A stretch of DNA of 64,000 nt from an uncultured bacterium. GTDB taxonomy: Bacteria > JAGOEH01. Made by a program: the position numbers and the translations under genes. The DNA lies in contig CAZWDO010000010.1 in the NCBI GenBank assembly GCA_964632485.1, positions 1 to 64,000 on the forward strand. The letters are read 5' to 3'. This document shows positions 26,051 through 60,921 of the stretch, piece by piece (the stretch's first letter is position 1; each line of letters starts with the position of its first letter). The notes beneath the pieces were generated by a model. The model searched no databases. It saw only the letters and a program-made list of their open reading frames with translations, and was not told the DNA's origin.

Positions 26051-27973
26051 GTGTCTATGCGAATAACCTTGCGGGATCGACTGAACTATTGGTTTGATAA
26101 CTACATGTCTCGAGGGATGATGGCGCTTATTGGCGGACTTTTCATGCTGACTTTATTTGTTATTGGCACAGCGTCATTTTGCATCGTTCATTTCAAAATT
26201 GTTCCTTCAGATCTGGATTCCGGTAGTTTCAATTTCCTGGAGGCAATGTGGGTTTCGCTGATGCGGACACTCGATGCCGGTAATATTGCCGGGGATGTCG
26301 GCTGGCTTTTTCGAATAGTGATGATCTGCGTTACGGCCAGTGGGATTTTTATTTTTTCTGCGCTTATTGGCGTATTGAGCCGTGGTTTAGAAGCGAAATT
26401 GGAAAATATGCGCAAAGGGCGCTCCAAAGTGATTGAATCCAACCATACCATTATTCTGGGTTGGTCGCCGTTGATATTTACCATTCTATCTGAGTTGATA
26501 ATTACGAACGAATGTCGGAAAAAATCCTGTATTGTCATTATGAGCGAATTGGATAAAATTGAAATGGAAGATCAGATCCATTTTTATATTGGTGATTCGA
26601 AGAATACGAAAATTGTATGCCGAAGAGGCAATCCAATTGATATAAACGATTTGGAAATTCTTAACATCCAGACTTCCAAATCAATCATTATCGTGAATCC
26701 CAAAGATGAGACACACGATATGGAGGTGATTAAAATCCTGTTGGCAATACTCAATTCTTCAACACGGCGAGTGACGCCTTACCATATAGTAACAAGAATC
26801 CGGAATTCAGAAAATTATAATGTTGCATCCCTTGTTGGAAAACAGGAAGTTGAATTTATTTTAGAAGATGAATTTACCGCCCGGTTGATCGCTCAGAGTT
26901 GCTTTCAGGGAAGGCTATCCGCAGTTTACAATGAAATTTTATCATTTAATGATAATGAAATATATATCCATAATGAACCTTCGCTCTATGGAATGAGCTT
27001 TAATGATCTTCTCGTTGCCTATAAAAATTGCTCTGTAATCGGAATTTTCAATCAACAGGATCATTTTGTATTGAATCCATCCGGTGACACCCCATATTTG
27101 CCTGGAGACCAATTGATCATGATAGCCAGGGACCGTTCCAGTATTTTTCCAGCTCCTATCAAAAAAATTGGGCGCATCCAACCAAATCAATGTATAGATT
27201 TAAATATTGAAATTGAAAAGAAGCGAGTATTGATTATTGGCTGGAATCCCAAAGCGAAGTACATCATCAAGCAGTTATCGCGTAATGTACATGCCGAGTG
27301 TAATATTACTGTCATTTTTGAGCATGAGATACCAGACGACGATAAACTCATGCTGACCAGGCTGGATAAAGAGATGACGATTGATTGGATTAAAGGAAAG
27401 ACTAATAATTATTCCTTTTTGGAATCTTTGCCCCCTTCCGGTTTCAACCATATCGTCGTTTTATCCGATTATACAATTCGTGATCGACAGGAAGCGGATG
27501 CCAAAACCATCATGGTTCTCTTATATATACGAGATATTATTTCAAGGTCCGACATAGCTCCGTCTTTAGTCAGCGAAATGCTAGATGCGAAAAATTGCCA
27601 GTTAGCAGAAATTACACAAGTAGATGATTTTATTGTGAGCGAGCGCATGATCAGTTTAATTATTACTCAGGTTTCAGAAAACAAGCATTTAAACGCCATT
27701 TTAAAGGAGCTTTTGGATTTTGGTGGATCGGATATCTATTTGGTGAATGCGGATCGTCTGGTGGCGCCGGGGGTTTCTGTGAACTTTTACTCGGTTATCG
27801 GTTCGGCGCGAAGAATGCATGCTATTCCAATCGGTTATAAATTAAAACGTTACATGACCGATCCTGCATACCATTATGGCATTGTCATCAATCCTGATAA
27901 AAATCAATCGATTTCCTATGATGCGGATGATCAGTTTATTCTGGTGTTGAATTCAGAAATGGAAAAATGTTGA
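26051..27973 (+). CDS. CASTOR/POLLUX (DMI1)-like ion channel, paralog 1
   Basis: TM-pore-TM with TLDAGNIAGD, RKGRSKVIESNHTIILGWS, and two RCK domains. Confidence 0.85.
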   Translation: MSMRITLRDRLNYWFDNYMSRGMMALIGGLFMLTLFVIGTASFCIVHFKIVPSDLDSGSFNFLEAMWVSLMRTLDAGNIAGDVGWLFRIVMICVTASGIFIFSALIGVLSRGLEAKLENMRKGRSKVIESNHTIILGWSPLIFTILSELIITNECRKKSCIVIMSELDKIEMEDQIHFYIGDSKNTKIVCRRGNPIDINDLEILNIQTSKSIIIVNPKDETHDMEVIKILLAILNSSTRRVTPYHIVTRIRNSENYNVASLVGKQEVEFILEDEFTARLIAQSCFQGRLSAVYNEILSFNDNEIYIHNEPSLYGMSFNDLLVAYKNCSVIGIFNQQDHFVLNPSGDTPYLPGDQLIMIARDRSSIFPAPIKKIGRIQPNQCIDLNIEIEKKRVLIIGWNPKAKYIIKQLSRNVHAECNITVIFEHEIPDDDKLMLTRLDKEMTIDWIKGKTNNYSFLESLPPSGFNHIVVLSDYTIRDRQEADAKTIMVLLYIRDIISRSDIAPSLVSEMLDAKNCQLAEITQVDDFIVSERMISLIITQVSENKHLNAILKELLDFGGSDIYLVNADRLVAPGVSVNFYSVIGSARRMHAIPIGYKLKRYMTDPAYHYGIVINPDKNQSISYDADDQFILVLNSEMEKC

Positions 27974-28056
27974 TGAAAAACCGCCATCATTCTGTTATTA
28001 AGTGAATGTTATTGCGGAGTGATATGGAACGTATAATGCATCAAGGAAAAACTTAG

Positions 28057-29982
28057 ATGGGAAATGAACGAATCCCCTGGAATCAAAGATTGCGGTATCG
28101 ATTTGATAACTATCTGTCGCGTGGCATACTGGCGTTAGTTATCGGACTTTTTTTATCGGTTTTTCTAGTTATTGGCATGACCGCGACTGTTATAGTATGG
28201 TTGCATATATATCCCGGAGGTCGGCCTGTTTCGTCCATGAATTTTTGGGAAGCTTTGTGGATTTCCTTCACGCGTACGATTTCTACCGGCGCCATCAGCC
28301 GCGATGATGGTTGGCATTTTCGCTTGATTATGTTATTTGTTTCGTTTTGCGGGATTTTTATATTTTCGTCATTGATCGGCGTACTCTCTAGAGGATTGCA
28401 AATGAAAATCGAATCCCTGCGAAAAGGGCGTTCAAGAGTACTGGAAACTGGCCATTTTATTATTCTCGGCTGGTCTCCTCAGATTTATACCATTATTCAC
28501 GAGTTGATTGACGCTAACAATCTACCATCGAAGTTTTGTATTGTTATTATGTGTGAACGGGATAAGGTCGAGCTTGAAGATGAAGTTCATTTCCATATTC
28601 CGGATCGCCGCCATGCAACCATTGTCTGCAGAACGGGGAATCCCATATCCAGGAAAAATCTTGAAATACTGAATATTCATTTGTCAAAGGCAATTATGAT
28701 TCTCAATTCGGGTTTGCCTAATTCAGATACCGAAGTGATTAAAACCCTGTTGGCAATTACCAATAGCCCGATACGTCCGGTCAAACCTTATCATATTATT
28801 GCCGAGGTATCCAATCCCCATAATTACGGGATAGTCCAATTGATTGGGAAGGAAGAAGTCGAGATTATTAAAAAGGATGAAATTATTGCTCGCATCATTG
28901 CGCAATGTTCGCTGCAATCGGGTCTCTCGGTCGTTTATAATGAGCTTTTCAGTTTTGTTGGTTCTGAAATTTATCTGAAGGAAGAACCGGGTCTTTATGG
29001 TATGCAATTTGGATATATTATGTCGATGTATGAAAGCGCTTCTGTGTTTGGGGTTTTAAATACGCATCAACAGCCTGTTTTGAATCCCGGGTATGATTAT
29101 TTGTATCAAAATGGTGAAAAACTGATTTTGATAGCCCATGATGAAGCCAGCATTATTCCAAAAAAAGAAAGGATTGCCGATTTAGTTACTAACTCTTTTG
29201 TAGACGATGCAGGCTCACGAAGGGAAGATCGCCAATCACCTTTAAAAATTTTGCTTGTCAATTGGAATTTAAGAGCGGAATTTGTAATCAGGGAACTCGA
29301 TGCTTACGTTCCTTCCGGTTCTTCGCTGCTGATCGCAACCAATTTTATCATGATTAAAAAGCAGGTCGAAAAGCTGATGCGGGTTTGTAAAAACCTTACC
29401 ATCGATTTTATCAAAGGGGTGATAGAAGATCGTGATTTTCTTAACTCATTGGATGTATTTCAATTCAATCATATCATCGTATTGCCGGGGAGCCTGGGCG
29501 TAAACGCTCAGGAAGCGGATGCCAACATCATCATCACCCTTTTATATCTCAGGGATATTGCCCAAAAGGCCGGTTTTCCATTATCGATTGTCAGCGAAAT
29601 GATGGATAGCCAGAATTGTCAATTGGCGGAAATATCCTATGTCAATGATTTCATTGTCAGTGAAAGGTGGATCAGTCTGCTGATGGCTCAAATCGCTTTT
29701 TCAAAACAGGTCTATCAAGTTATCAGGGAATTACTGGATGTGATAGGATCTGAAGTGTACCTGAAAGAAGCTTCACTATATGTGGAACTGAATACGCCGA
29801 TCGATTTCTATTCGGTTTTGAAGGCGTTTGATCCACGATATGAGATCCCCATTGGGTATAAAATCGCCCGGTTTGCAAAGGATCCTCTTCAGAATTTCGG
29901 ATTGGCGCTGAATCCAAATAAATCTCAATTGATTACTTTTTCCAGGGATGATAAAATCATTGTCATTGCTTCAGAAATGTAA
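28057..29982 (+). CDS. CASTOR/POLLUX-like ion channel, paralog 2
   Basis: Colinear with paralog 1; pore loop TISTGAISRD; two RCK domains. Confidence 0.85.
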   Translation: MGNERIPWNQRLRYRFDNYLSRGILALVIGLFLSVFLVIGMTATVIVWLHIYPGGRPVSSMNFWEALWISFTRTISTGAISRDDGWHFRLIMLFVSFCGIFIFSSLIGVLSRGLQMKIESLRKGRSRVLETGHFIILGWSPQIYTIIHELIDANNLPSKFCIVIMCERDKVELEDEVHFHIPDRRHATIVCRTGNPISRKNLEILNIHLSKAIMILNSGLPNSDTEVIKTLLAITNSPIRPVKPYHIIAEVSNPHNYGIVQLIGKEEVEIIKKDEIIARIIAQCSLQSGLSVVYNELFSFVGSEIYLKEEPGLYGMQFGYIMSMYESASVFGVLNTHQQPVLNPGYDYLYQNGEKLILIAHDEASIIPKKERIADLVTNSFVDDAGSRREDRQSPLKILLVNWNLRAEFVIRELDAYVPSGSSLLIATNFIMIKKQVEKLMRVCKNLTIDFIKGVIEDRDFLNSLDVFQFNHIIVLPGSLGVNAQEADANIIITLLYLRDIAQKAGFPLSIVSEMMDSQNCQLAEISYVNDFIVSERWISLLMAQIAFSKQVYQVIRELLDVIGSEVYLKEASLYVELNTPIDFYSVLKAFDPRYEIPIGYKIARFAKDPLQNFGLALNPNKSQLITFSRDDKIIVIASEM

Positions 29983-30048
29983 ACGGATAGAGAATACCCA
30001 TTAATAATTGCCGGTTGACTACCAGTTTAATAGCAAAGGAGATACCAT

Positions 30049-31950
30049 ATGACCGGATTTGATTTGAGAGCCCGTACCCGATATTATTTTGATAATTACA
30101 TGTCGCGGGGGACAATGGCGCTGATCGGGGGTTTGTTTGCGCTCACTCTGTTGGTGATTTTCCTGGCCGCTTTGATCGTAGTCGGCGCGGGGATCACCCC
30201 GGTGGAACAGACGGGCGAGCCATTGGATTTTTTAGAGGCGATCTGGGCCGCCCTGATGCGCACGATTGATACCGGGACCATTGCCGGGGATAATGGTTGG
30301 CAATTCCGATTGATCATGTTTGCCGTGACTGTTTGCGGTATTCTCATTTTTTCGGCTCTGATCGGCGTCTTGTCCCGCGGTTTGGAATGCAAGTTGGAAT
30401 CGCTGCGCAAGGGCCGATCGCGTGTGATCGAAGCCAATCATACGGTTATTTTGGGCTGGTCGCCGCAGATTTTTACCATTATCTCGGAGCTGATTATCGC
30501 CAATGAAAGCCAGAAAAATCCATGTGTTGTGATTATGAGCGAGAATGATAAAGTAGTAATGGAGGATAATATCCATTTTAATGTCCCTAATACAAAAAAT
30601 ACTCGTATTGTTTGCCGGACAGGTAATCCCATCGACATTAACGATTTAGAAATTTTGAGCCTTCAGACCTGCAAATCGATTATTATCTGTAGCCCGCCCT
30701 GCGATGAACCCGATGTTGAAGTGATCAAAACTCTATTGGCGATTGTCAACAGCCCCTCCCGCCGCGCGGAGCGCTATCATATTGTTGCCGAGATTGTGAA
30801 TCCCGAGAACTATGATATAGCCGCTCTTATCGGGAAAGATGAAGCGGAATTGGTGAAAACGGACGAAATTACCGCGCGCATCATTACGCAAAGCTGCCGG
30901 CAAACTAGCCTTTCGGTCGTGTATAATGAATTGTTCAGCTTTCGGGACAATGAGATTTATTTGAAAAGTGAACTAGCTTTGTACGGGAAGCCATTTCATG
31001 AAATCCAATTTGCTTATAATAAATCATCGGTCATTGGAATTATAGATGCCGGAAACATTCCAATTTTTAATCCCCCTGAAGAGCGTATTTACCAGGAAGG
31101 TGAAAAATTGATTTTTATAGCGGAAGATGATGCTTCGATTCATCTTTCAAAATCACAAATCGAAAAAACCAGTGCGCCCAGCGTGGTAGCGAGTTCGATC
31201 CAACCGGTTGGCCCTGAAAAAACTCTGATCATCGGATGGAATAACCGCGCCAATTATATCATCAATGAACTTCAAACCTATGTAGCTCAGGGTTCTGTGA
31301 TTTCGGTGGCGGTCGATGATCCGACGTCGGTGGAAGAAATCCGAGCGATGTGGGAGGAAGTGAATCAAATCAAACTCGAAACGGTAACCGGCGCTTTGAC
31401 GAAACGCAGTTTTTTGGAATCCCTGGACCCCTGCCGCTATGACCATATCATTGTACTTGCCAAGGAACGGTACCATACCCCTCAGGAATCGGACGCCCGG
31501 ACCATCATGATTTTGCTTTACTTGCGCGATATTGCCAATAAAGCGAATCATCGGCTGTCCATTGTCAGCGAAATGATCGATTCCAAAAACTGCCAATTAG
31601 CTGAAATAGCGCGCGTGGATGATTTCATTGTCAGCGAACGTTTGATCAGTTTAATTATAACTCAGATTTCCGAGAATAAATCCTTGAACGTGATTTTCCG
31701 AGAGTTGTTGGACTCCAAAGGATGCGAGATTTATCTGGAAAATGTCGAAAACTATGTGGAACTGGGTAAACCGGTTAATTTTTACACCGTCATCGCTGCG
31801 GGAATAAAGAATAAAAGAATCCCGTTCGGATATAAACTGAATCGTTATGCCGGGGATGCGTCACGGAAATACGGGATCGTCATCAATCCCGATAAATCCC
31901 AATTGATAACCTTTCAGCCAGAGGATCGCATCATTGTCATTGCGGAATAA
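30049..31950 (+). CDS. CASTOR/POLLUX-like ion channel, paralog 3
   Basis: Colinear; pore loop TIDTGTIAGD; AAGGAG SD. Confidence 0.85.
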   Translation: MTGFDLRARTRYYFDNYMSRGTMALIGGLFALTLLVIFLAALIVVGAGITPVEQTGEPLDFLEAIWAALMRTIDTGTIAGDNGWQFRLIMFAVTVCGILIFSALIGVLSRGLECKLESLRKGRSRVIEANHTVILGWSPQIFTIISELIIANESQKNPCVVIMSENDKVVMEDNIHFNVPNTKNTRIVCRTGNPIDINDLEILSLQTCKSIIICSPPCDEPDVEVIKTLLAIVNSPSRRAERYHIVAEIVNPENYDIAALIGKDEAELVKTDEITARIITQSCRQTSLSVVYNELFSFRDNEIYLKSELALYGKPFHEIQFAYNKSSVIGIIDAGNIPIFNPPEERIYQEGEKLIFIAEDDASIHLSKSQIEKTSAPSVVASSIQPVGPEKTLIIGWNNRANYIINELQTYVAQGSVISVAVDDPTSVEEIRAMWEEVNQIKLETVTGALTKRSFLESLDPCRYDHIIVLAKERYHTPQESDARTIMILLYLRDIANKANHRLSIVSEMIDSKNCQLAEIARVDDFIVSERLISLIITQISENKSLNVIFRELLDSKGCEIYLENVENYVELGKPVNFYTVIAAGIKNKRIPFGYKLNRYAGDASRKYGIVINPDKSQLITFQPEDRIIVIAE

Positions 31951-31974
31951 AAAAAATGGAAGTAAAAATTTTGC

Positions 31975-32003
31975 TTGACAAATTACATAAAAAATAGTAA
32001 TAT
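31975..32003 (+). promoter_or_regulatory. Putative sigma-70 promoter
   Basis: TTGACA-17 bp-TAATAT. Confidence 0.6.
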
Positions 32004-32217
32004 ATCATGATTGTGGTTAAATCCTGGTCGCGCTTTTCTTGAAGAAAAAAAGACCGAATTCTGTTAAGTGTGCATTGACAACTTTAAAAGGCGATTTAAA
32101 TGAGTCGGGATGTTAAAAAGGGTTCCCCGAGAGATTTATCTTTCAATATAGACATCGCATGCCTGAAATTTTTTCTATGGAAACCTATATGTAAAATCTT
32201 TTCAAGGAGGTATTATT

Positions 32218-33324
32218 ATTAATATTCACGTTAATCGCATTTATCTTGCTTTCTGTCTAGCGTTGGCATGGCTCGCGGCTTGCGGGACTTCGCCCCAGCC
32301 CCCCAAACCGGAAACCAAAGCGATAGCCGTCAGCATGTTGGATGGCGCCGACACAGTAACCACGATCGCGGGTAAATTATCCGCGGAGCAGAATGATGAG
32401 GATGAGAATTCATTGCCCCGGATTTTGCTGGACGACAAGCCGGTTTACACTTTCCAGGATCACTATGGCCTGAGTTTCAAGGCATTGTTCGATATGGCGG
32501 GAAGCTATCAGGGGATTCTAATCATTGCCACCAATTATGCCCATCCGCCGTGCCCCGTGGATTTGTATTTAATGACCCTCAATCCCGATCAGAGCGTTAA
32601 AGTATCCGATCCCTTCGGCACCTGCACCGATTATCTGAAATACGAAATCGACACGATCAAGCAGGCGGTTATCATGAAGAATGCTTCCCATGTCGATAGA
32701 CGTTTCCAGGAAGTGGAACCGGTTGGCGGCCATGAATACAGCTATTGGATTTACCAGGACAAGGAAGTCCGGGAGTTGGAAGGCTGGAATGAAGACGAGT
32801 CTGTCGCCGGCGATGAATCCGAGGGAGAGTATGATAGCGTCGATCGTTCCCTGTTTCAGATGCTGGGCATGAAGTTCCCGCTGACGGTAAGTGATTTTGT
32901 CGATCGAATGGGCGAGCCTGATAAGATGGAATATGACGAGGATGATCCCTCGCCCTGGGGACAGTTCTTTTACTGGCCGATACCGGATCAGAACCTGATG
33001 CTGACGGTATTGGGTTCCGGCAGCGGACTCGAGCCCCAGTATGATGAATCATGTATTTTTTTGACGCTTAAATCTCTGGAGTCTGACGATGGCGGAACGG
33101 TCCGTCACTTGCCGTCAAATGTAGATTTCGGCGACAGTTACGGCGTGGTCAATCAGGCTTTACTGCATCTGGTGGAATTGAATCCGAAACTTGAACTGTC
33201 CGGCGGCATCGAATCGCAGTTGATGCTGACGGATGGCGAATCCTATTTGTTTTATTTCTTTGATGATGATGGTGGCTTGAAGGAAGTGATGCTCTCCGGC
33301 ATCAATATCAATCAGGCCGATTGA
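32218..33324 (+). CDS. Acidic lipoprotein, probable ATT start (track start 32263)
   Basis: AAGGAGG at 32204-32210, then in-frame ATT giving a full signal peptide ending LAA-C. Confidence 0.7.
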   Translation: MNIHVNRIYLAFCLALAWLAACGTSPQPPKPETKAIAVSMLDGADTVTTIAGKLSAEQNDEDENSLPRILLDDKPVYTFQDHYGLSFKALFDMAGSYQGILIIATNYAHPPCPVDLYLMTLNPDQSVKVSDPFGTCTDYLKYEIDTIKQAVIMKNASHVDRRFQEVEPVGGHEYSYWIYQDKEVRELEGWNEDESVAGDESEGEYDSVDRSLFQMLGMKFPLTVSDFVDRMGEPDKMEYDEDDPSPWGQFFYWPIPDQNLMLTVLGSGSGLEPQYDESCIFLTLKSLESDDGGTVRHLPSNVDFGDSYGVVNQALLHLVELNPKLELSGGIESQLMLTDGESYLFYFFDDDGGLKEVMLSGININQAD

Positions 33325-33506
33325 GGAATCACATAGAAGTTAGCAGGTTTTTGAACGTTTTATGATGATCCTATATTGCAAAAACACCGAGAAACAACAG
33401 CTTTGATAGTATACTCGTTTTTATTTTTGTTTTTTCAACAATTGCCTGGCAGAATTTCGTTTTGCCAAATGTAGTTTTCAGGATAATTTAAAAAAAGGAG
33501 TGTGAT

Positions 33507-33890
33507 ATGTCCGACAAGATACGAATTCTGGTAGTGGATGACGATGCCAATCCCCACGATACAGCCAAAAAATTTCTGAATCCGGATTATGATACTGATC
33601 ACGCAGAAGGCGCTTATGCCTATGACAATGCTTTGATCAAGATTTTTGACGAGAGTAAAAAATATAATTTGATCATTACCGACTATCATCTGGGAAGTGC
33701 TGGAGATGCCTTTCAGTTGATCCAGGAATTGCGCGATGGGGGTATCGAATGGCCAATTATTGTCTGGTCGGCAGATAGTTCGAATGAAACGATTATGAAC
33801 GCACAGGACAATGTAAAATTCATCTCCAAGCCGCCGGAAAAATCAACCTTGCTGAACCTGATCAATAAAATGCTGAATCCAAGTGAATAG
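33507..33890 (+). CDS. Single-domain response regulator (CheY-like)
   Basis: ILVVDDD, LIITD, IVWS, ISKP; first gene of the che cluster. Confidence 0.85.
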   Translation: MSDKIRILVVDDDANPHDTAKKFLNPDYDTDHAEGAYAYDNALIKIFDESKKYNLIITDYHLGSAGDAFQLIQELRDGGIEWPIIVWSADSSNETIMNAQDNVKFISKPPEKSTLLNLINKMLNPSE

Positions 33891-37749: not shown

Positions 37750-37771
37750 TCTGAATGAAAAGAGGAACGCT

Positions 37772-39940: not shown

Positions 39941-41654
39941 ATATTTACTCCAGGAATTGTCCTCGCCTGATTGGCAGGAACGATCGCATAGCGTCGCAAA
40001 ATATATTGCAGAAAGTGATCCGGCATTTAATGATTTTTTGATTGCGCATATTCATGATCGTAATACCAATCTGCGCAATGCGGTCAAAACACTTCTCATT
40101 CACCGTAGAAACAGCGCGATTCTTTTTGATTCGTTAAAGAACCATGACGAGCATGTTCGTATTGCTGCTGTCAACGCTTTGGGCCAGATTGCAGACCCCA
40201 TCTCGATACCTCCTTTGATGGAGTTGTATCATTCCGAGACAGCCATCAATGTGCGGTTATCGCTTTATGAAGCGTTCCAGCACCTGAAATCCTACGATAT
40301 ACAGGTTGAGCTGATACAGAAATTTTCAGATATGAACCCAATGGAAAAGCAATCTGCTATTTACGTATTCCGGGATACAGGGCTGGTTTCCTCTGAATTA
40401 CTGGCGCTGTTACATCGTCATATATTCAGAAGCGAGCTGCGAATTCCCATTCTTGAAGCATTGGAAAGACTCGGGAATAAAGATTCGTTGAAATATGTTG
40501 CTCATCATCTAAACCCGGAGTTTTCTCTTCAATTTCTCGCATCAGCACGTGCCATCGTCGCGATTGTTCAGCGATATACTGCTTCCCGGGAAGTGGCAAT
40601 CCAGTCGTTAAGCGAGCTCAAGGCTGTACAAAAAGATCATATCTGTCGTACTCTTGTCGATTTTGTCGCTAAAAACAAGAAGGATTTTTCCACAGCAATT
40701 GGATTGTTGTCTATGTTGGATGGCAATCTGATCTTTCCCTATCTATTTGAATTGATCCCTTATGCCCGTCAGGAGGTGATCAACGCTTTGCTGCCGATTG
40801 CTCAGGTACATGCTGAAAGATTGCTGCCCTATGCCATCAATCATGAAGCCGAAGCCCGCGCGGTTTGTGGTTTTGCAATACTGGCTGCTGCCCCATTGGA
40901 ATCTGCTCGGGAACTGATTCGTCTGCTGCCACTTGAACATGATCGTGAGGCTATGCGGATGAAGGTATTGGCATTGTATCAACGCCAGTCTGATGTTCTG
41001 AACATGGAGTTTCTTAGTGTAGCCATGAATCTTCTTCAAATCAGCGAGTTCAAACCTTTGTGGCATGATTTTGAGGCAATTCTCTTGAAAATTGAAGAAT
41101 CGAATCTGCAATCATGGTTGAAAAATTTGCTCGTATCCTATTCTGAATTGTCAGTCTTCGCTTTGGAATTGTTGACTAAAAAAAACATTACAATTCCTTT
41201 TGACTGGATTCAATCCTATTTGACAGACAGTAAGACCGAATTGCGGCGATTGGCTGTCCTTTGTTTATCAAAGATTAGACCATCCTGCAGTCCTGATCTT
41301 TTAAACAAGATTGCTATCGATAGTAATGATGAAATACGGAAAGCCTTATCGCAGGTTTTAAAAGAAGATCGGGAATCAGGAAGTCTGGTAGTACTGGAAA
41401 AATTGATGGTTGATACAGTTCATACAGTGCGTATCGAGGCAATCCTTTCATTGGCTGAGCGTGGTGTGGATCGGTTTGCAGAAGATTGGCTCAGGCAAAT
41501 TCAAATTCCGCCTGACGAGTATAGTCATAAATTAATTCGTGCTTTGTTGAAAATAAAGAATCCATCGATTTGCTCTTCCCTGGAACTGATTGCCCAACAG
41601 ATAGAAACGACTGATCCAATGGCTGCAGAAACCATCCGTGAATCTCTATCCTGA
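39927..41654 (+). CDS. HEAT/PBS-lyase repeat protein
   Basis: DEHVRIAAVNALGQI, ELRRLAVLCLSKI, TVRIEAILSLA; overlaps the MCP stop. Confidence 0.85.
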   Translation: MESIEYLLQELSSPDWQERSHSVAKYIAESDPAFNDFLIAHIHDRNTNLRNAVKTLLIHRRNSAILFDSLKNHDEHVRIAAVNALGQIADPISIPPLMELYHSETAINVRLSLYEAFQHLKSYDIQVELIQKFSDMNPMEKQSAIYVFRDTGLVSSELLALLHRHIFRSELRIPILEALERLGNKDSLKYVAHHLNPEFSLQFLASARAIVAIVQRYTASREVAIQSLSELKAVQKDHICRTLVDFVAKNKKDFSTAIGLLSMLDGNLIFPYLFELIPYARQEVINALLPIAQVHAERLLPYAINHEAEARAVCGFAILAAAPLESARELIRLLPLEHDREAMRMKVLALYQRQSDVLNMEFLSVAMNLLQISEFKPLWHDFEAILLKIEESNLQSWLKNLLVSYSELSVFALELLTKKNITIPFDWIQSYLTDSKTELRRLAVLCLSKIRPSCSPDLLNKIAIDSNDEIRKALSQVLKEDRESGSLVVLEKLMVDTVHTVRIEAILSLAERGVDRFAEDWLRQIQIPPDEYSHKLIRALLKIKNPSICSSLELIAQQIETTDPMAAETIRESLS

Positions 41655-41674
41655 TTTAGAAAGTACAGAATATT

Positions 41675-42508
41675 TTGACCGAACATCAATTTGAACTTTT
41701 TAGCAGTCTTGTGAAACGCCGTTTGGGGTTGCAATTTCCCAGCTCTTCTTATTTGACTTCTTTATTAAATTTTCGGTCTGCAAGTCTCATATCGGAATTG
41801 GATGCTCATTTCGATTCCATTATGATGGATCTCAAACTCTATCCATTGACATCAGATGTCTGGCAATCGTTCATCCAGGCGTTGTGCAACCCGGAAACCT
41901 ACTTTTTCAGAGAAATGGCACAGATTAAGAGACTGGCAGAACTACTCATTAAGGAAAGAAAACGACGTCTGCGTATCTGGTCAGTTCCATCGTCCGGAGG
42001 CGAAGAACTCTTTTCGATCATAATGGTGCTTGATGCGATTGGTATCACTGAAATTGATGGATTTGGGTCCGAAATTCGTCTGGACCTGGTTGGTAAGGCA
42101 AAGCGGGGAAGCTATGACAACCAGTCATTCTTCGATCCGCCGCCCAGCGAATATCATCGGTATTTTTCCGGCGAGAATCTTGCCGCAATCAGTCGTGTTA
42201 GCTTTAAAACACAAACTGTAAGCATTGCGCCATCGCTCATATCTCGGATTCAATTCCAATTTGGTAATATTCTTGATCCAATCACATACCCATGGGGGAA
42301 TTTTGATGTAATTTTCTGCCGTAATTTGCTGATCTATTTCGAGTCGGATGCGAACCGTCGTATCATAGCAGCTCTTTGGGATAAGTTATCTCCCGGAGGT
42401 TATTTGTGCCTTGGCAACAGCGATTTCATCTATGAATTCTTTTCCATCATGGACAACCTGGAGGATACCATCGGCCACAACATCTATCGCAAGCGCAACG
42501 GATCATGA
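41675..42508 (+). CDS. cheR: Chemotaxis methyltransferase CheR
   Basis: NPETYFFRE, RIWSVPSSGGEE, FDVIFCRNLLIYF, LSPGGYL. Confidence 0.92.
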   Translation: MTEHQFELFSSLVKRRLGLQFPSSSYLTSLLNFRSASLISELDAHFDSIMMDLKLYPLTSDVWQSFIQALCNPETYFFREMAQIKRLAELLIKERKRRLRIWSVPSSGGEELFSIIMVLDAIGITEIDGFGSEIRLDLVGKAKRGSYDNQSFFDPPPSEYHRYFSGENLAAISRVSFKTQTVSIAPSLISRIQFQFGNILDPITYPWGNFDVIFCRNLLIYFESDANRRIIAALWDKLSPGGYLCLGNSDFIYEFFSIMDNLEDTIGHNIYRKRNGS

Positions 42509-43089
42509 CGAAACGCCGCATCGAATGCGTGGTCATCGGCTCGTCAGCCGGCGGCGATTCGGCGCTCTATGCCATCCTGCCGGATCTGCCCGCCGATCTG
42601 TCGGTTCCGATTATCATCGCCCAGCATAATCTGGACAATACGCTTTTTGCCCGGCTGTTGCGCTCCAAAACAAGTTTCCCCGTCGAGATGGCCGCGGAGG
42701 GGCGCATTGTGGAAGTGGGATGCCCGCATGTCTATGTCGTGGGCTCGGATTGCCGCACGCGGTTGTCCGGCCGCCCGGGCAGCCAAGTGATCTTTGTCAC
42801 CGACCCGGTTCCCGACAAAAAAATGGTGTTGCCCAATATCGACGAAGTCATGCGTTCCGCCGCCGCGTCGTTTGGGCCAGCATTGCTGGGAGTCGTGCTG
42901 ACCGGCATGGAAGATGATGGCGCTCAGGGGATAAGGGCTATTCATTTTGCCGTCGGGTTGACGATGGTGCAGGATCCAGCAGATGCGGAATTCAAGGGCA
43001 TGCCCAGCGCTGCCCTGCGGACCGGAGTGATTGATTTTGTGGTTCCCCTTTCGCGTATCGCTGCAACAATCAACCGACTGACAATTTAG
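42505..43089 (+). CDS. cheB: CheB methylesterase lacking a receiver domain
   Basis: GSSAGG (Ser), AQH (His), LTGMEDDGAQG (Asp), GMP; ATGA coupling to cheR. Confidence 0.92.
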   Translation: MTKRRIECVVIGSSAGGDSALYAILPDLPADLSVPIIIAQHNLDNTLFARLLRSKTSFPVEMAAEGRIVEVGCPHVYVVGSDCRTRLSGRPGSQVIFVTDPVPDKKMVLPNIDEVMRSAAASFGPALLGVVLTGMEDDGAQGIRAIHFAVGLTMVQDPADAEFKGMPSAALRTGVIDFVVPLSRIAATINRLTI

Positions 43090-43142
43090 TTCATTAATGT
43101 CTATAAATAGCAAGTTTATACAAAAAAAAAGGAGTCCGAATT

Positions 43143-44249
43143 ATGGCGCATACCACAGGAAACCGCCGCAGTGAAACCAAAAAAAATCAAACCATTCATT
43201 ATACTCCAATCCAGATTAAAATTCTAAGAGAACGCTGGAATACTGATTTAGGTAAACAACGATGTCAGGAAATCAGTTCACTTCTGCAAGAGGGGAAGAA
43301 TAATTTTAAAAATGTAGTTGCTTTCCCTGAGAATCCGCTTCTGGCAGATGTGGCGGTTCCCCCGGAAAAAGATTTGCGCGGTATTTCCCTTAACAGCGTC
43401 ATTAAAGAAAAAACGCTATTGCAGGGATTTCATTTCTCCGGCGCCCAATTGGGGTGTACAATAAATAGTGTCATGTTTCTCCGTTCCCATTTCGAATATA
43501 CGGAATTCAGCGGCAGTAAGATTGAAAACAGTATTTTCAAAGGCGCCTTTTTTTATCGGACTGATTTCTATAATGTCAGCTATATCCAGAATCTCGATAT
43601 TACCAATGCGTTTGTCGATGATATCGAAATCTGCAACAAAGCTCAATTCAGCAAATTTATCCCCAGTTTCAACGATCTTTCGTATTTCGAAAAACAGTAC
43701 ACGCTCTATGCGCTGATCAAGCAACAATACAAACTGATGGGACGCTGGGACGATATGATTCCGTTTCATATCCTGGAAATGCGGGGCCGACGGGATGATC
43801 GCTATCGAGTGGCGGCTAAGCCAAAAAAAGAAACGGTTCTGGACCCCGAAACCGGAAAGAAAAAGACAGAAACGAAACCCAATTTGGATCCCGGAACAGG
43901 AAAAGAAAAAAAAGTCCGCAGAATACAATGGTATCTGGATTTGATTTTTTTTGACCTGCTGTGCGGATATGGCGAAAAATGGCAGAATGTGATCGCCTCC
44001 GCGTTTATGGTTATAATGGTCTATTCCTTCTTGTATTCTCTGGCGCCAATGCTGACGCCGGACGGACAAACGACGGCCTATTTCAATTATTTTTATTTCA
44101 GTTGCGTCACTTTTTCCAACTTGGGGTCGCCCGATATTCTGCCTTCCAATCTCGCCCAACGGTTTTTAATGTTTACCGAATCGTTATTTGGGCTTTTTCT
44201 GGTCACGATGATTATCGTGATTTTTACGCGTAAAATTATCCGGGAATGA
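43143..44249 (+). CDS. Pentapeptide-repeat protein fused to a two-TM channel (Ion_trans_2-like) domain
   Basis: DLRGISL/FSGAQ/FKGAFF pentapeptide-like units; CGYGEKW; YFSCVTFSNLGSPDILP pore-like loop. Confidence 0.8.
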   Translation: MAHTTGNRRSETKKNQTIHYTPIQIKILRERWNTDLGKQRCQEISSLLQEGKNNFKNVVAFPENPLLADVAVPPEKDLRGISLNSVIKEKTLLQGFHFSGAQLGCTINSVMFLRSHFEYTEFSGSKIENSIFKGAFFYRTDFYNVSYIQNLDITNAFVDDIEICNKAQFSKFIPSFNDLSYFEKQYTLYALIKQQYKLMGRWDDMIPFHILEMRGRRDDRYRVAAKPKKETVLDPETGKKKTETKPNLDPGTGKEKKVRRIQWYLDLIFFDLLCGYGEKWQNVIASAFMVIMVYSFLYSLAPMLTPDGQTTAYFNYFYFSCVTFSNLGSPDILPSNLAQRFLMFTESLFGLFLVTMIIVIFTRKIIRE

Positions 44250-44425
44250 TCCTTTATCCAACCCGTTATAAATTATGACTGTGAGTCAACTTTGTTTTTA
44301 CGATTGTTTGTTATTTTTGTGAATTATATTACTTTTTTATGTCATCACTTGTTCAAACTGTGCCAATAATATTCTTTTTAGGTGTGTCTATACTGACTAC
44401 CCGTAGTAAGGCGAAAGGAGTGAGT

Positions 44426-45754
44426 GTGTCCAAAACTAAAGGGATGGCGGATTATCGCTATCGGCTGATCAAGCGGTTTTACGCTTTCTGGCAAAAATAC
44501 CAACTGAAGACTGAATTGAAAAACATTTTGCGGCTCTTCTACCTGTTTATCATCACCTGGCTGGTCGGCTCGGTCATCACCATTTTCAGTCAGGTATTTT
44601 TTTCACCGGATATTCATCACACACTTCCTGATTATTTGCAATATTTTTGGATTGTCATCATCGAACTGGTCAGTGGATTCGATATCGGCGACATCCATCT
44701 CAATGCCTTCAGCCAGGTGATCACGGTCATCATGTTAATTGTCGGTATTGTCATCGTGGGTCTGTTCACGGGCCAGATTATTTCCCTTTTTGTTCACGTA
44801 CATCAGCGTAAGGACTACTTGCCGGAAAAACCGGAAACGTTCCATTTCAAGCGACCTTTGTTGATTTGTGGCATTAGCGCCAAAGTCGATGCCATTATTC
44901 ATCATTTGCGCAGCAATCCACAAACCCGGGACCAGGAAATCGTGATCATTGACGAAACGGCTGATCAGTACCTGATCCGGGATCAAGAAATTTATCGTGA
45001 TGTCTGGTGCGTGCGCGGCAATGTCGCGGATCGCAAAGTGCTACGTACGACTCTGGGGTGTGAGGAAAGCGTGGCAATCATTTTAGCCCAGGAATGCGAT
45101 CCCGGGAATATTTCCCTCTATAGCGATTCCAAGGCGATTCAGACCGCGTTGGCCATTGAAGCCTTCGATGAGAATGTGCATACGATTTTAGAGTTGATCG
45201 ACCGCCGGAATCTGGCGCATTTGATGCGCACCCGTATCAATGAATTCATCACGGTTTCCGATTATGGTGTGAAATTACTTTCGCAAACCGCTATGCAGCC
45301 GGGATTATCGAACATTTACGATTCCTTGATCGATCCCATGAATTCTGATGCTCAATCCCCCCATATTTATTTCTATCCGTTGCCAACTGATTCGCCGTTG
45401 ATTGGTATGAAATATGGCGACATTGTCAATCAGGCGCATCGGTTTTTTTCAGATTCAATGACACTTGTCGGCATGGCGAAATGGTTCGGCCCAATCCTCA
45501 ATACAGGAGATGTCGATCGTAACGAGCAAATACTCCAGGAATTGAGATCCCTGGGGATTGAACTTCGCAATACAAAATGGTATGTGCAGATCAACCCCCA
45601 CAAAAAAGCAAATTATTGTAAATTCGGGATCGATTTTTTTCAACAGCAAATTGAAGCCAATTCAGAAATCACTCTTTTTTTGACTCATGATACTGTCTTG
45701 CAAGAATATGACAAGCTTGTCTATTTGGCATCCAACCCAATAAAATTATCTTAA
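44426..45754 (+). CDS. Two-TM ion channel with RCK (TrkA-N-like) domain and non-canonical pore
   Basis: TM1, ELVSGFDIGD loop, TM2 (IVGIVIVGLFTG), LLICG...VRGN...SDSKAIQTALAIE; GTG start after AGGAG. Confidence 0.8.
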   Translation: MSKTKGMADYRYRLIKRFYAFWQKYQLKTELKNILRLFYLFIITWLVGSVITIFSQVFFSPDIHHTLPDYLQYFWIVIIELVSGFDIGDIHLNAFSQVITVIMLIVGIVIVGLFTGQIISLFVHVHQRKDYLPEKPETFHFKRPLLICGISAKVDAIIHHLRSNPQTRDQEIVIIDETADQYLIRDQEIYRDVWCVRGNVADRKVLRTTLGCEESVAIILAQECDPGNISLYSDSKAIQTALAIEAFDENVHTILELIDRRNLAHLMRTRINEFITVSDYGVKLLSQTAMQPGLSNIYDSLIDPMNSDAQSPHIYFYPLPTDSPLIGMKYGDIVNQAHRFFSDSMTLVGMAKWFGPILNTGDVDRNEQILQELRSLGIELRNTKWYVQINPHKKANYCKFGIDFFQQQIEANSEITLFLTHDTVLQEYDKLVYLASNPIKLS

Positions 45755-45769
45755 ATGGAGGTGGAATCT

Positions 45770-46618
45770 ATGACAAACCCAGCAAAACAACGCGGTGATT
45801 ACGGCATCGAAAATCATTATGTGATCTGCAATTGGACGCCCAAAGCGGATGTCATCGTGCGTCAGCTTCACAATGAAAGCGTTCACGACAAGAAGCCAAT
45901 CATCGTAATTACACGCAATCCTGAACAGGTTCCCCAGACGACGGATAAAGAGTATCGGGGATTGCTGATGATCTGCGGCGACCCGGCCGATCGCGAAATT
46001 CTCCAACGCGCCGATGTCCGTCATGCTCAAACGGTGATCGTGCTGGCCGACGAAACGGATCTGGCCAATGCCGATGCCAAATCAATCCTGATCGCCCTGG
46101 CGGTCGATTCGATCAACCCCAATGCCCATGTGGTGGTGGAACTGGTCAAATCGCAAAACAAAATGTACTTCGAATATACCCACGTCAACGAGATCGTCTG
46201 CCTGGAACAGTTGGCGGAAAAGCTGCTTTCGCAAACCGCCCTGACTCCGGGCCTCTCCCAGGTCTATATGGACCTGCTCACCCAATCCGCCGACACCAAC
46301 GAAATCTATCAGGAAGTGGTCCCCTCCCAGTTCGTGGGCAAACCCTATATTGAACTCGAACAGGCAATCAATGCCAATCATGACCTGGATGTGATCATCA
46401 TCGGTTTTGCCACCCGGGTTCAAAAAATGAAAGGGAATATCGCCATGACCAATGGCGGCGGCAAAGCCATCATGGAACAAAAAATCGTGATCAATCCGCC
46501 CAAGGACAGCGTCGATTCTCCCTATACCAAAAGCTATAAGCTCAACGAGGAGGATACGGTTTTTCTGATTGCCTACGAAAAACCCGAATTGTCCCAATAC
46601 TTTAATGTCAGGAATTGA
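45770..46618 (+). CDS. Soluble RCK/TrkA-N-like gating protein
   Basis: NHYVICNW, ICGDPADREILQRADV, ADAKSILIAL, TPGLSQVY; no TM; GGAGG SD. Confidence 0.85.
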   Translation: MTNPAKQRGDYGIENHYVICNWTPKADVIVRQLHNESVHDKKPIIVITRNPEQVPQTTDKEYRGLLMICGDPADREILQRADVRHAQTVIVLADETDLANADAKSILIALAVDSINPNAHVVVELVKSQNKMYFEYTHVNEIVCLEQLAEKLLSQTALTPGLSQVYMDLLTQSADTNEIYQEVVPSQFVGKPYIELEQAINANHDLDVIIIGFATRVQKMKGNIAMTNGGGKAIMEQKIVINPPKDSVDSPYTKSYKLNEEDTVFLIAYEKPELSQYFNVRN

Positions 46619-46643
46619 CAAGTTGACGCCGCAACGTTATAAA
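46615..46643 (+). promoter_or_regulatory. Putative internal sigma-70 promoter
   Basis: TTGACA-17 bp-TATAAA, overlapping the RCK gene stop. Confidence 0.5.
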
Positions 46644-46688
46644 TGTCTTGGGAATTAATCAAATGCTTACATGGAAAGGTATTTTAAA

Positions 46689-47582
46689 ATGCGAAATTTA
46701 GCTATATTTTTTATTATCGGCATGTTGCTGCTTGGCTGCGGGGGAGAGCCTCAACCCGCGTCTCAACCCTCTGTCCAAACGGCGCAGGATAGCGCCAATT
46801 CACAGGATCAAGCCGCCGCTGAGGAAAACTATGAAGAAGGCTATGATGAAAACCATGTCGTGGATTCCGCGCAGTATATCGCCGAGCATGAATATTTCGA
46901 TAAAGACAGCAGGCGGAATCAATTCTTTATTGCCTTTACCTATGGCGATGGCTTTATTGGGATTCATAAATTTCATTTGAATCAGCCAGTGGCTCTGTTG
47001 ATGGACAAGGCAATAATGGGTACGTCCGCAAGCTATGAAGCGAAAATTTATGACTATACTGAAGAACTGCACACCAAATTGAAATACAACAATGTGCCGG
47101 CGGATCAGCCGCAACGCTTTTTCCCGGGGTTGCTCTACCCGGAAATTGGTTCTTATGGGCAGATCCCTGTGGAATCGGAGTCAAATCCGATGATGATCGA
47201 CTCGTTGATCGATCGCGTGAAAAACTCGCCCCTCATGGACTCGCTGCGCAATAAAGTGCAAAATGGTGATGCGTTGGTCATGGATGAAAACAGCATTTTT
47301 CGCATTGTGTTCAGGGAACAAGCGTATCACCTGATTATAATGGGTAAAGTAATTTATGATGATTATGCCGGGCCCATGGTTTTGGTTCGCGATAATCGTG
47401 TGTTCCCCCTGATTGAGATCGAAGCCAACCGCACCATAAGAGCCTTTGAGCTCAATGGCGAACTCTATTGCCTGACGTTGAGCAGCACGACCGAGGGCGA
47501 TAACGACTGGCAATATGGAATTTTCAGGCTCAGCGGGGATGGCGTGGGCCGTGTTCATGAAGAATCGTATTGCAGTGATTGA
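46689..47582 (+). CDS. Lipoprotein, unknown function (alternative start 46671)
   Basis: Lipobox LLGC followed by a Q/E-rich linker. Confidence 0.75.
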   Translation: MRNLAIFFIIGMLLLGCGGEPQPASQPSVQTAQDSANSQDQAAAEENYEEGYDENHVVDSAQYIAEHEYFDKDSRRNQFFIAFTYGDGFIGIHKFHLNQPVALLMDKAIMGTSASYEAKIYDYTEELHTKLKYNNVPADQPQRFFPGLLYPEIGSYGQIPVESESNPMMIDSLIDRVKNSPLMDSLRNKVQNGDALVMDENSIFRIVFREQAYHLIIMGKVIYDDYAGPMVLVRDNRVFPLIEIEANRTIRAFELNGELYCLTLSSTTEGDNDWQYGIFRLSGDGVGRVHEESYCSD

Positions 47583-47613
47583 TTGAAAAAATAGCGGATT
47601 ATGAGGTAAAAAA

Positions 47614-48783
47614 ATGAGCAAAGCGCAACGAATTCACGATTTTTTTGAAAAACCGTCCTGTATTTGGGCCTATCTGGTTCAGGGATTGATTTTTCTGCTG
47701 ATTTTCATATCCGTGGGCATGGTCTATATCGAGATGGCCCAGGTTGAATTGTATCAGCGTTACGCGGGATGGTTTCAGTATGGCGAGTATATTGTTTTGG
47801 CGGTGTTTACCATCGAATATCTTTTGCGGATCCTGTCGGCGCCCCAAAAGCTGAAATTCGCCATCAAGCCATTGAATATCATCGATTTGCTGGCGATTGT
47901 ACCGACTTATCTCGAATTTTTCATCGGCATCGCCTTCAATACCTCGGGAATCCGGATCATTCGCGTGATTCGCCTGTTGCGCCTGAGCCGGGGATTGCGA
48001 ATCTTCAAGATTTTCAAATATGGTATGTTTTTTTGCCAGGTGTTCCGTTTTAAAGGTACGATTTTGCAGGCCATCATGCCGGTTATCGGTATGCTGACCG
48101 TGATGAAAGGCGCAATCCTTTTTCTCGAATCGCGCCATTGGTGGTTTCAGGATCCCGGTTTGGGCGAACTGTTCGCCATTATCGGCTTTGCCCTGGGTAT
48201 TATTCTGTCGCAGAAAATTGCGAGTACCTACGATAAATTTTTGCAAGTAGAGGAAAAGATCATTGGTCTCTACGGCACACTGAAATCACTCTCCTTAATT
48301 TTGGAAAAGGCTCGGCCGGGGCAGGGATACCGAACCTGCACCGATTGGGCCCGGGCATTTTTGGATAGTCTCTTGGATTCAAAAGGGGGAAATCGCAAGA
48401 TCGAAGCGGCAAACGAGCAATTGTTCCATATAATCGCAGAAGTGGAAGACGCCCCGGCGGAACTGGCCATTTTGCATGGCGATATCTGCCGCGATTCTTT
48501 TTTTGCACTGAGCAAGAAAACACGTCTCACTCCCAAACCTTACGATAATCTATTGCAACAGGCTACGGTCCTTTACCTTTTTCTGATCGCCATTTTTGTT
48601 CCCGGGTTCTCTGGGATGATTTCTACTATTGTGGCGACCTATATCCTTTATGGCATGTACAATTTGACTCAAGACCTGGATACGATCATCGGCGGCGAAT
48701 TCGATCTGATCAGCATCGATATTTCCGAAATGCGGGAATTCGCCAATTCCATGCTTGAACCGACCGTTCATCATACGTATTGA
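47614..48783 (+). CDS. Voltage-sensor (S1-S4) domain fused to a bestrophin-like C-terminal domain
   Basis: FTIEYLLR, NIIDLLAIVP, S4 RIIRVIRLLRLSRGLRIFKIFK; no GYG pore; C-half resembles bestrophin motifs. Confidence 0.7.
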   Translation: MSKAQRIHDFFEKPSCIWAYLVQGLIFLLIFISVGMVYIEMAQVELYQRYAGWFQYGEYIVLAVFTIEYLLRILSAPQKLKFAIKPLNIIDLLAIVPTYLEFFIGIAFNTSGIRIIRVIRLLRLSRGLRIFKIFKYGMFFCQVFRFKGTILQAIMPVIGMLTVMKGAILFLESRHWWFQDPGLGELFAIIGFALGIILSQKIASTYDKFLQVEEKIIGLYGTLKSLSLILEKARPGQGYRTCTDWARAFLDSLLDSKGGNRKIEAANEQLFHIIAEVEDAPAELAILHGDICRDSFFALSKKTRLTPKPYDNLLQQATVLYLFLIAIFVPGFSGMISTIVATYILYGMYNLTQDLDTIIGGEFDLISIDISEMREFANSMLEPTVHHTY

Positions 48784-48845
48784 GTTTGCGCAGCAATTAA
48801 CATTTGTTTAATCCGCATCCCGATGCGCCATAAAACTTTACCATC

Positions 48846-48910
48846 GCCCCCTTGGGGGAGAGGGCAGAGTGAGGGGATTCTCATGTATTCCGGGTCAAGC
48901 CCGGAATGAC
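48846..48910. repeat. REP-like palindromic elements
   Basis: CCCCCTTGGGGGAGAGGG..GTGAGGGG and ATTCCGGG-TCAAG-CCCGGAAT(GAC) inverted repeat. Confidence 0.5.
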
Positions 48911-49256
48911 GATGGGATGTCGGAAAGATTTGCAATATTAGAAAAAAATGACGGCATGAAAACTGCTGTTATTCAGATAAGTGGATCTCGCCAGGATGGT
49001 CATTAAAAGGGAGCAGGTCTCTTTAAAAAGAAGAAATGCGAGATGCGATCCCTTCTTTGCGGAACCGCTTCCCGCCGGATGCAGGTTTTAAAATATACCC
49101 GGCTAATTGAATGTTTGGTTAATATTGTATTGATTATTTGAAGGAGGTAACATCTATGTTTGAATTGCGATGGCTAAAAGTAACCTCGCGGATGTCTATG
49201 TAATAATTGCCTATTCGCTGCTCAACGGCTAATCGGCGTGCAAAAAGGAGAATATA

Positions 49257-53625: not shown

Positions 53626-53639
53626 AAAGGGGCTTTCTT

Positions 53640-56069: not shown

Positions 56070-56079
56070 GTCAGGAGTT

Positions 56080-56119
56080 TCCGGGCGCCCTCATCCAATG
56101 ATCAGGCGCGCCCGGATTT
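56080..56119 (+). terminator. GC-rich hairpin, possible terminator
   Basis: TCCGGGCGC...GCGCCCGGA then TTT. Confidence 0.5.
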
Positions 56120-56211
56120 GGATAATGTCAGTTTTCCCGCTAATTATTGTAACTTTTCCTTCTCGGGTGCGTATTTTTTAGTAGAAACCCATTTAACCAG
56201 AGGAGGAATCC

Positions 56212-58911: not shown

Positions 58912-58917
58912 ATAGCC

Positions 58918-60909: not shown

Positions 60910-60921
60910 ACTTTTTCCCGG

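Follow-up and report, generated by a model that had tools for sequence, protein, structure and literature searches.

A rare chemosensory gene cluster joined to a pentapeptide-repeat channel gene in an uncultured bacterium

Chemosensory (Che) pathways are known to act on motors, second-messenger enzymes and transcription. The stretch of DNA described here, 64,000 nucleotides of contig CAZWDO010000010.1 from an uncultured bacterium (GenBank assembly GCA_964632485.1), carries an island of 15 open reading frames (ORFs), all on the + strand at positions 26051-48783, in which a che gene cluster lies among genes for channel-like proteins. "The window" denotes the full 64,000-nucleotide stretch; its host genome is labelled G000, other genomes are labelled G and loci L. 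The original prediction, made from the letters of the window, took the 23-kb island for one module linking a chemosensory pathway to six atypical ion channels. Its gene content, order, positions and strand stand as described, Pfam confirms the domains, and no flagellar, pilus or DNA-binding domain is found by Pfam among the 15 island proteins, in keeping with the predicted lack of flagellar, pilus and transcription-factor genes there. The conserved unit is smaller than the island and consists of cheY-cheA-mcp-HEAT-cheR-cheB and the gene for a pentapeptide-repeat channel. These seven genes make up a real and rare chemosensory variant, apparently not described before, that has a dedicated channel.

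The seven-gene unit and its conservation

The unit opens with cheY (33507-33890), which encodes a single receiver (REC) domain of a distinct clade (Pfam Response_reg) and is the sole gene that accompanies the channel at every locus. The acidic pair, D59, S88 and K108 of CheY are invariant in 7/7 aligned sequences. The cheA gene (33883-37749) encodes a REC domain, an Hpt-like segment (H279 within HNVKG), an HATPase domain and two or three CheW domains, recognised by Pfam and NCBIfam. The build REC - Hpt-like HN[VL]KG - HATPase - CheW repeats is common to all members of the CheA clade, with HN[VL]KG in 7/7 clade loci; the Pfam Hpt model has no match on the window CheA, and the NCBIfam CheA profile matches it from residue 272. 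Next come the chemoreceptor (methyl-accepting chemotaxis protein, MCP; 37772-39940; Pfam MCPsignal), whose putative ligand-binding part, a periplasmic sensor, sits between two transmembrane helices placed by hydropathy at about residues 19-37 and 200-218, and a HEAT-repeat protein (39906-41654; Pfam HEAT_2) with orthologues in the same position elsewhere. The CheR methyltransferase (41675-42508; Pfam CheR) and a CheB methylesterase without a receiver domain (42505-43089; Pfam CheB_methylest; Ser/His/Asp motifs present) complete the che genes. MCP, CheR, CheB and CheY all score above their Pfam cut-offs, and the alignments of CheY, CheR and CheB contain motifs that we take to have catalytic roles. 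The seventh gene (43143-44249), the proposed output, encodes a pentapeptide repeat, a helical linker and a two-helix pore-loop channel (Ion_trans_2; filter TFSNLGSP), an architecture like that of HalA.

The six che genes overlap or nearly touch in the window (gaps of -35 to +22 bp), and the channel gene begins 53 bp past cheB, the distance originally given. Gaps of 312, 182 and 89 bp divide the island into blocks. A sigma70-like site lies within the 312-bp gap (31975-32003), where such sites are not above chance, and a promoter scan gave 62 sites against 52 +/- 8 in shuffled sequences, which is no excess. GC content varies sharply within the operon, from 59% in cheB to 37% in cheA and 33% in mcp, in a genome of 44%.

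The CheA clade is tiny. When residues 140-1288 were run with HMMER against 1.84 billion representatives, 21,052 matches reached E <= 0.001, and the only relatives below 1e-30 besides the query itself were P0241 (2e-96), P0242 (1e-81) and P0243 (2e-73). The next match stood at 4e-27, so that a gap of 46 orders of magnitude separates these three from the rest. A word-based search returned generic CheAs only (21-27% identity, among 8000 candidates scored), and no CheA of the clade was present in 60 related or sampled genomes. The clade CheA alignment, used to scan metagenomes, gave eight loci, four with a full-length CheA (L022-L025) and four short generic matches that were dropped. The reverse scan, with the channel alignment against 185,579 species genomes, gave three, namely L030, L031 and a 20-residue match that was dropped. 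The five weak loci with short generic matches (L026-L029, L032) are excluded from all counts.

In L022-L025, which represent two lineages with GC contents of 47% and 36%, cheY-cheA-mcp-HEAT-cheR-cheB is directly followed by an orthologue of the pentapeptide channel gene. L030, from a Bacteroidota metagenome-assembled genome (MAG; G062), has the same seven genes and is about 91% identical to L023. The full gene order is thus shared by the window, L022, L023, L024, L025 and L030, in three lineages, and the gap between cheB and the channel gene narrows to 2-10 bp in L023, L024, L025 and L030. L031, from an Ignavibacteria MAG (G061), has only cheY and the channel gene, 43 bp apart, and no other gene of the operon. 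Its CheY, left out when the clade profile was built, matches that profile at E 9e-33 and is the sole match at E <= 1e-13 in that genome. The same profile, with L031 left out, identifies 3/401 genomes of the Ignavibacteria class at E <= 1e-17, namely G061 (L031), G062 (L030) and G301, and the clade CheY profile has one match per carrier genome where tested. The channel profile matches two of these three CheY-positive genomes among the same 401.

In the remaining genome, G301 (L102), the run cheY-cheA-mcp-HEAT is cut within the HEAT gene by the end of the contig, and its assembly yielded no CheR and no channel. This absence reads as an assembly gap, the lack of any CheR at all being a sign of incompleteness. 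The G301 CheA shares 65% identity with P0242. For one sequence in the P0242 cluster and one in a channel cluster the longest contig measures 186,394 bases, and the two probably lie together on it. Altogether, the channel is in the same unit in 7/8 loci with a clade CheY, the eighth being cut, and a clade CheY is present in 7/7 channel loci.

The original prediction had proposed to test whether this CheA clade co-localises with channel genes in other genomes, with che clusters lacking channel neighbours as the counter-finding. Such clusters were not what was found, because the same channel adjoins the che cluster in 5/5 other complete loci. The channel is also the best-conserved large protein of the unit between the three complete lineages. 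Between-lineage identity is 47-51% for the channel, 30-32% for CheA, 26-28% for MCP, 27-30% for the HEAT protein, 35-38% for CheR, 38-48% for CheB and 34-51% for CheY. The flanking genes are unrelated between lineages and mostly encode housekeeping or secreted proteins. Upstream of the channel gene lies cheB or cheY, and downstream a gene for an RCK channel, pantothenate kinase, DnaE, a beta-propeller protein or a dehydrogenase. About 1 kb upstream of cheY in L024 (6724-8628), a DDE transposase gene is fused in frame to a DUF4922 gene. No copy of the unit was found in two near relatives of G000, and the family- and order-level searches around G061 and G062 covered one or two genomes only.

The pentapeptide channel

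The channel family is tight, with 25 sequences at E <= 3e-91 followed by a gap to 1e-20 (35 matches among 5235 candidates). Where taxonomic names are given, they are Ignavibacteriaceae and Bacteroidota. The pentapeptide repeat of the window protein is detected by profile and by fold and was missed by a single-sequence Pfam scan. The predicted model (pLDDT 83) consists of N-terminal helices, a beta-solenoid, a helical linker and a two-helix pore. The filter follows the pattern (T/N)F(S/T)N(L/Y)GS(Q/P) in 24/26 complete family rows, and TVGYG is absent from the family. Outside the pore, the best-conserved stretch is a cytoplasmic helix at residues 201-220. Viral contigs yielded no member of the family, and plasmids yielded only four partial channel matches at 28-33% identity.

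The best structural match is HalA (9nyi), the only listed structure that spans the full length of the channel (Foldseek E 3.3e-7, TM-score about 0.3; VIA Z 11.8 over 262 aligned residues, root-mean-square deviation (rmsd) 7.9, 11-12% identity). Taken by itself, the pore resembles KirBac, NaK and others (VIA Z 10-12 over 83-92 residues, rmsd about 2-3). In the excerpts available of two reviews, HalA is described as a tetrameric channel that is kept shut by oligo-dA at its subunit interfaces and that, once released, depolarises the cell with Na+ inflow (PMC13434031; PMC13276650). Membership of the Hailong system was considered for the window channel and rejected. The HalA model (NCBIfam NF051894) scores it at 15.2 bits against a cut-off of 250, and no HalB-like nucleotidyltransferase lies beside any locus. 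PADLOC has no match for 4/4 channels scanned. Among 27 aligned channel members, 11 weakly touch the HalA model, the best at E 1.7e-5. Proteins combining pentapeptide repeats with Ion_trans_2 form a broad superfamily. A complex prediction of CheY with two channel copies scored 0.00 against a mark of 0.32, a value that is not evidence either way, the controls not having been folded.

Other island genes and the remainder of the window

Upstream of the che genes lie three CASTOR/POLLUX-like channel genes, CP1 (26051-27973), CP2 (28057-29982) and CP3 (30049-31950), which score 93-100 bits with Pfam Castor_Poll_mid against a cut-off of 26.7. CP3, the only one compared with a structure, matches plant CASTOR (6o6j) at E 3e-60. 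Proteins of this type are common, with at least 1840 matches among 7996 candidates (best 50-53% identity) and occurrence in 76/401 genomes of the Ignavibacteria class; a first genome scan with CP3 had given no match. As a control, 40 of 79 matched places, chosen for contig room and spread, were examined over up to 9 kb per side. CheR, CheB, CheW, MCP and the pentapeptide channel were found at E <= 1e-5 in 0/40 of these loci, which gave one weak kinase match at 23% identity. The CASTOR-like gene is single in 40/40 control loci, and the window has a tandem triplication with three different pore motifs. In a comparison with 47 homologues, the three copies group as a single clade (SH-aLRT 100, a support that long branches and odd composition may inflate). 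The triplet is a local expansion outside the conserved unit, and CASTOR-like genes as partners of the che genes were rejected.

An acidic lipoprotein of no known family follows (32218-33324). Its gene probably starts at an ATT codon near 32215-32218, as only this start gives a full signal peptide; AGGAGG and three in-frame ATT codons occupy 32205-32220. Downstream of the pentapeptide channel lie a two-helix RCK channel with an SGF filter (44339-45754; Pfam) and, abutting it, a soluble RCK protein (45755-46618; Pfam TrkA_N and Slo-like_RCK), which is 29% identical to the RCK part of the adjoining channel; both are possible accessories. The second lipoprotein (46671-47582) has a lipobox in its sequence, belongs to no known family and has no Pfam, NCBIfam or PADLOC match. 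The last gene (47614-48783) encodes a voltage-sensor domain (VSD) fusion, with Ion_trans at residues 23-135 and a helical, bestrophin-like part (Bestrophin_2, E 7e-6, under the cut-off). Unannotated look-alike clusters of 360-370 residues occur in the ESM Atlas (TM-score 0.65), the single-sequence fold has a pLDDT of 37, and the C-terminal part has no meaningful sequence match in the PDB. The fusion possibly represents a separate, undescribed family of voltage-dependent proteins.

At the seven other loci, no intact orthologue of any of the eight non-core genes lies within the up to 10-14 kb examined, L022 and L102 being short on one side. The CASTOR-like channels, RCK channel, soluble RCK protein, VSD fusion and lipoproteins thus fall outside the conserved unit, and the whole island as one conserved unit was rejected. 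The six channels of the original prediction come down to five pore-loop channels, the VSD fusion having no pore-loop domain. All six channel-like proteins do lack TVGYG, as it had observed, and no TxGYG or TxGFG motif occurs in them. Their pore motifs are LDAGN, ISTGA and IDTGT in the CASTOR-like proteins, TFSNLGSP in the pentapeptide channel and LVSGFDIGD in the RCK channel. The proposed tie between a Che-like pathway and ion flux agrees with the retained channel neighbour. RCK rings were named as the partner, and the partner found is the pentapeptide channel, which profile comparison does not relate to the window RCK channel.

Intact RCK channels are thus missing from the other loci, and broken remains occur near the operon in two lineages. 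In G301, a broken channel gene with an SGF filter lies 6.5 kb from cheY (L102, 14189-16400). It combines a TAXI/NMT1 periplasmic binding domain, a two-helix pore and an RCK domain, the architecture of a ligand-binding channel. In G062, a 560-bp scar separates the upstream gene from cheY (L042, 1150-1710) and is absent from the 91%-identical relative L023. An 86-bp piece of the scar is 90.7% identical to the genome's own channel gene and runs into an RCK-like C-terminus of 65 codons (E 0.004-0.006 for the profile domain), whose score against CP2 and CP3 is reached by 0/300 shuffles. The window RCK channel has no close orthologue in the 401 genomes (39 matches at 20-26% identity). The filter is TVGYGD in 30/30 other RCK channels examined and SGF only at the two operon-linked places. 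Because broken remains lie near the operon in 2/7 other loci, RCK channels of the SGF type may be loose accessories that are often lost.

Outside the island, a peptide/nickel-type ABC transporter precedes a long series of secreted proteins of the Ig, fn3, PKD, TPR and zinc-ribbon kinds, whose C-termini are of the sorting type (2391-25875). Behind it lie short GC-rich palindromes resembling REP-type elements (48784-49256), then consecutive genes for a MerR regulator, a VIT-VWA protein and a double-PspC protein (53101-56652). A run on the - strand (56886-62889) encodes a TonB-dependent receptor, a histidine kinase with a YfiR/HmsC domain, a single REC protein and a hybrid kinase.

Possible output of the pathway and comparison with known systems

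We give about even chances to the reading that the seven genes form a chemosensory pathway with the ion channel as its dedicated output, in which the state of CheY would control a non-K+-selective cation channel. By established Che biochemistry, the receptor would bind a periplasmic ligand, CheA with its built-in CheW domains would autophosphorylate the Hpt histidine and pass the phosphate to CheY, and CheR and CheB would reset the receptor. The REC domain of CheA itself may act as a phosphate sink or in feedback. CheY, by its phosphorylation state, could then act on the cytoplasmic part of a tetrameric channel and change its open probability, a gating step that we infer from gene linkage only. 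The current would be a depolarising cation flux, not selective for K+, that shifts the membrane potential or Na+ or Ca2+ levels. At L031, which lacks cheA to cheB, the same CheY-channel pair would be driven by another kinase; G061 has no clade CheA, has other Che-type kinases and has a CheY that keeps its phosphorylation residues. Nearby RCK channels would be optional modulators and the CASTOR triplet a local addition. A bolder version, somewhat short of even chances, holds that the receiver domain directly binds the HalA-like channel and opens or closes it. The array with its adaptation would then amount to a bacterial metabotropic receptor that turns a chemical signal into depolarisation, and RCK and CASTOR-like channels would shape the response in some hosts.

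Several observations weigh against an output through the channel. The G1 box of the window CheA is degenerate (NNRKG, with N675 and R677; window 35905-35913). The box reads DNGKG, DDGKG or DDGLG in 6/6 other clade loci, where all the ATP-binding boxes (N, G1, F, G2) are intact. As the G1-box Asp contacts adenine in GHKL ATPases and N675 and R677 replace D and G, the window CheA may be a weak, impaired or dead kinase. The eight loci represent only four or five lineages, and the two-gene form is known from one genome only. Genomic context has been seen for about 5/25 channel clusters and, in the L031 branch of 13 members (support 98/100), for 1/13. The PilT-family gene of G062 scores slightly above the cut-off and that of G301 close to it, and G301 also has FliG, so that control of a motor is conceivable in these two genomes. 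A HEAT-repeat protein, moreover, is reported in the excerpts available to be the output of another Che system, Che7 of Myxococcus. Other accounts of the channel gene are taken here in declining order of probability.

It is unlikely that the channel is a guarded effector of the Hailong kind, serving anti-phage defence or a stress response, toxic when open and kept shut by CheY instead of HalB-made oligo-dA, with the receptor-kinase sensing envelope damage or infection and triggering release, depolarisation and growth arrest. Such an account would draw on HalA as the closest full-length structure, on the weak matches of 11/27 members to its model, on the patchy distribution with unrelated flanks and on one neighbour in L025 that matches a PADLOC candidate model, and a CheY that must be kept would account for the two-gene form. 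The HalA score of 15 bits against 250, the absence of a PADLOC match in 4/4 channels and of any nucleotidyltransferase neighbour, and flanks that mostly hold housekeeping or secreted-protein genes point the other way. Adaptation by CheR and CheB also suits graded, reversible signalling better than suicide, and the superfamily of pentapeptide and Ion_trans_2 proteins is broad.

The odds are poorer still that this is an alternative-function or motility Che system that acts by way of the HEAT protein, flagella or pili, with the channel as no more than a co-transcribed passenger. The association of Myxococcus Che7 with a HEAT protein, in the literature excerpts at hand, is in line with it, as are HEAT genes that by inspection flank CheR in another G000 cluster and the fact that every carrier has flagella or a PilT-like gene. 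The flagellar switch is present in G000 (4.45 Mb, 98% complete; four other CheA genes; two near relatives in the genome set), in G061 and in G301, and G000 and G061 are flagellated. Flagellin, FliM/N and FliG were not found in G062, an assembly that lacks a completeness figure (such figures exist for G000-G002 only, and for none of G061, G062 and G301), and no PilT-family retraction ATPase is matched in G000 or G061. With no flagellar genes found in G062, and no PilT in G000 or G061, the carriers have no one motor in common. In G062 the clade CheA is the only match to a CheA-type kinase, and there is one MCP only. Nor is a passenger easily reconciled with a channel that, among the large genes, is conserved best across lineages whose CheAs are 30% identical, and that stays with cheY after the loss of five intervening genes, HEAT included.

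It is quite improbable that the channel instead serves as an input or modulator, its flux or conformation tuning the receptor-kinase array, with the true CheY output elsewhere. Gene linkage gives no direction, and several ion-sensing RCK and voltage-sensor proteins adjoin the operon in the window. Against this, where the other genes are missing, the channel is accompanied by CheY, which stands at the output end of the pathway, and not by the receptor or kinase. Most doubtful is the view that RCK rings gate a single module made up of the whole island. The broken TAXI-2TM-RCK channel of G301, the G062 scar that joins RCK sequence to a piece of the channel gene just ahead of cheY, and the restriction of the SGF filter to operon-linked places might favour it. 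It is opposed by the lack of intact non-core genes at 7 other loci, by CASTOR-like control loci devoid of che genes (0/40) with the triplet a single local clade, and by the shortness of the G062 scar, found at a relaxed threshold.

Were the favoured reading, with the channel as the output of CheY, to hold, an ion channel as Che output would join chemosensory signalling to bacterial electrophysiology. We know of no receiver-domain-gated channel so far, and this one would be the first; the gating step, if shown, would be new in kind. It would also offer a function other than phage defence for the large superfamily of pentapeptide and pore-loop proteins, in which HalA is the one relative found with a solved full-length structure. 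With its two small proteins of 122 and 345 residues, the cheY-channel pair of L031 makes the claim testable. The literature seen (excerpts of PMC13434031, PMC13276650, PMC9040617, PMC6697748 and PMC12422006 among it) holds no description of a Che operon with such a channel, a weak negative given mostly narrow multi-term queries and little coverage of subscription papers, and a term search in PMC2577667 gave no match. The gene order may be listed in supplements to the primary publications on Hailong, Che7 and the Che classes.

Among known channels, plant CASTOR/POLLUX/DMI1 share with the genes at 26051-31950 a pore and tandem-RCK build without TVGYG, and Ca2+-regulated Ca2+ conduction has been reported, in the excerpts available, for the plant CASTOR channel. 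Compared with bacterial CASTOR homologues, only the triplication in the window is unusual. The pentapeptide channel shares its two-helix pore fold with channels of the KcsA, NaK and MthK type, but its filter is not TVGYG and it has no RCK or nucleotide-binding gate. With HalA of Hailong (9nyi) it shares a cytoplasmic pentapeptide part, a helical linker, a C-terminal two-helix pore, a similar length and an adjoining partner gene. In contrast to HalA, to which it is 11-12% identical, its partner is a receiver domain and not the HalB nucleotidyltransferase, and no defence-island setting is seen.

The Che classes F1-F17, Tfp and ACF are reportedly those of Wuichet and Zhulin. The non-motility Che systems (ACF-type, such as Myxococcus Che7, Pseudomonas Pil-Chp and Wsp) resemble the unit in having CheA, MCP, CheR, CheB and CheY in one operon together with a linked candidate effector, and Che7, as far as the available excerpts go, shares the HEAT-repeat protein as well. 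Unlike these systems, the unit has a CheA with an N-terminal REC and two or three CheW domains, no separate cheW and a CheB without REC, and its linked effector is an ion channel rather than a cyclase, transcription factor or motor.

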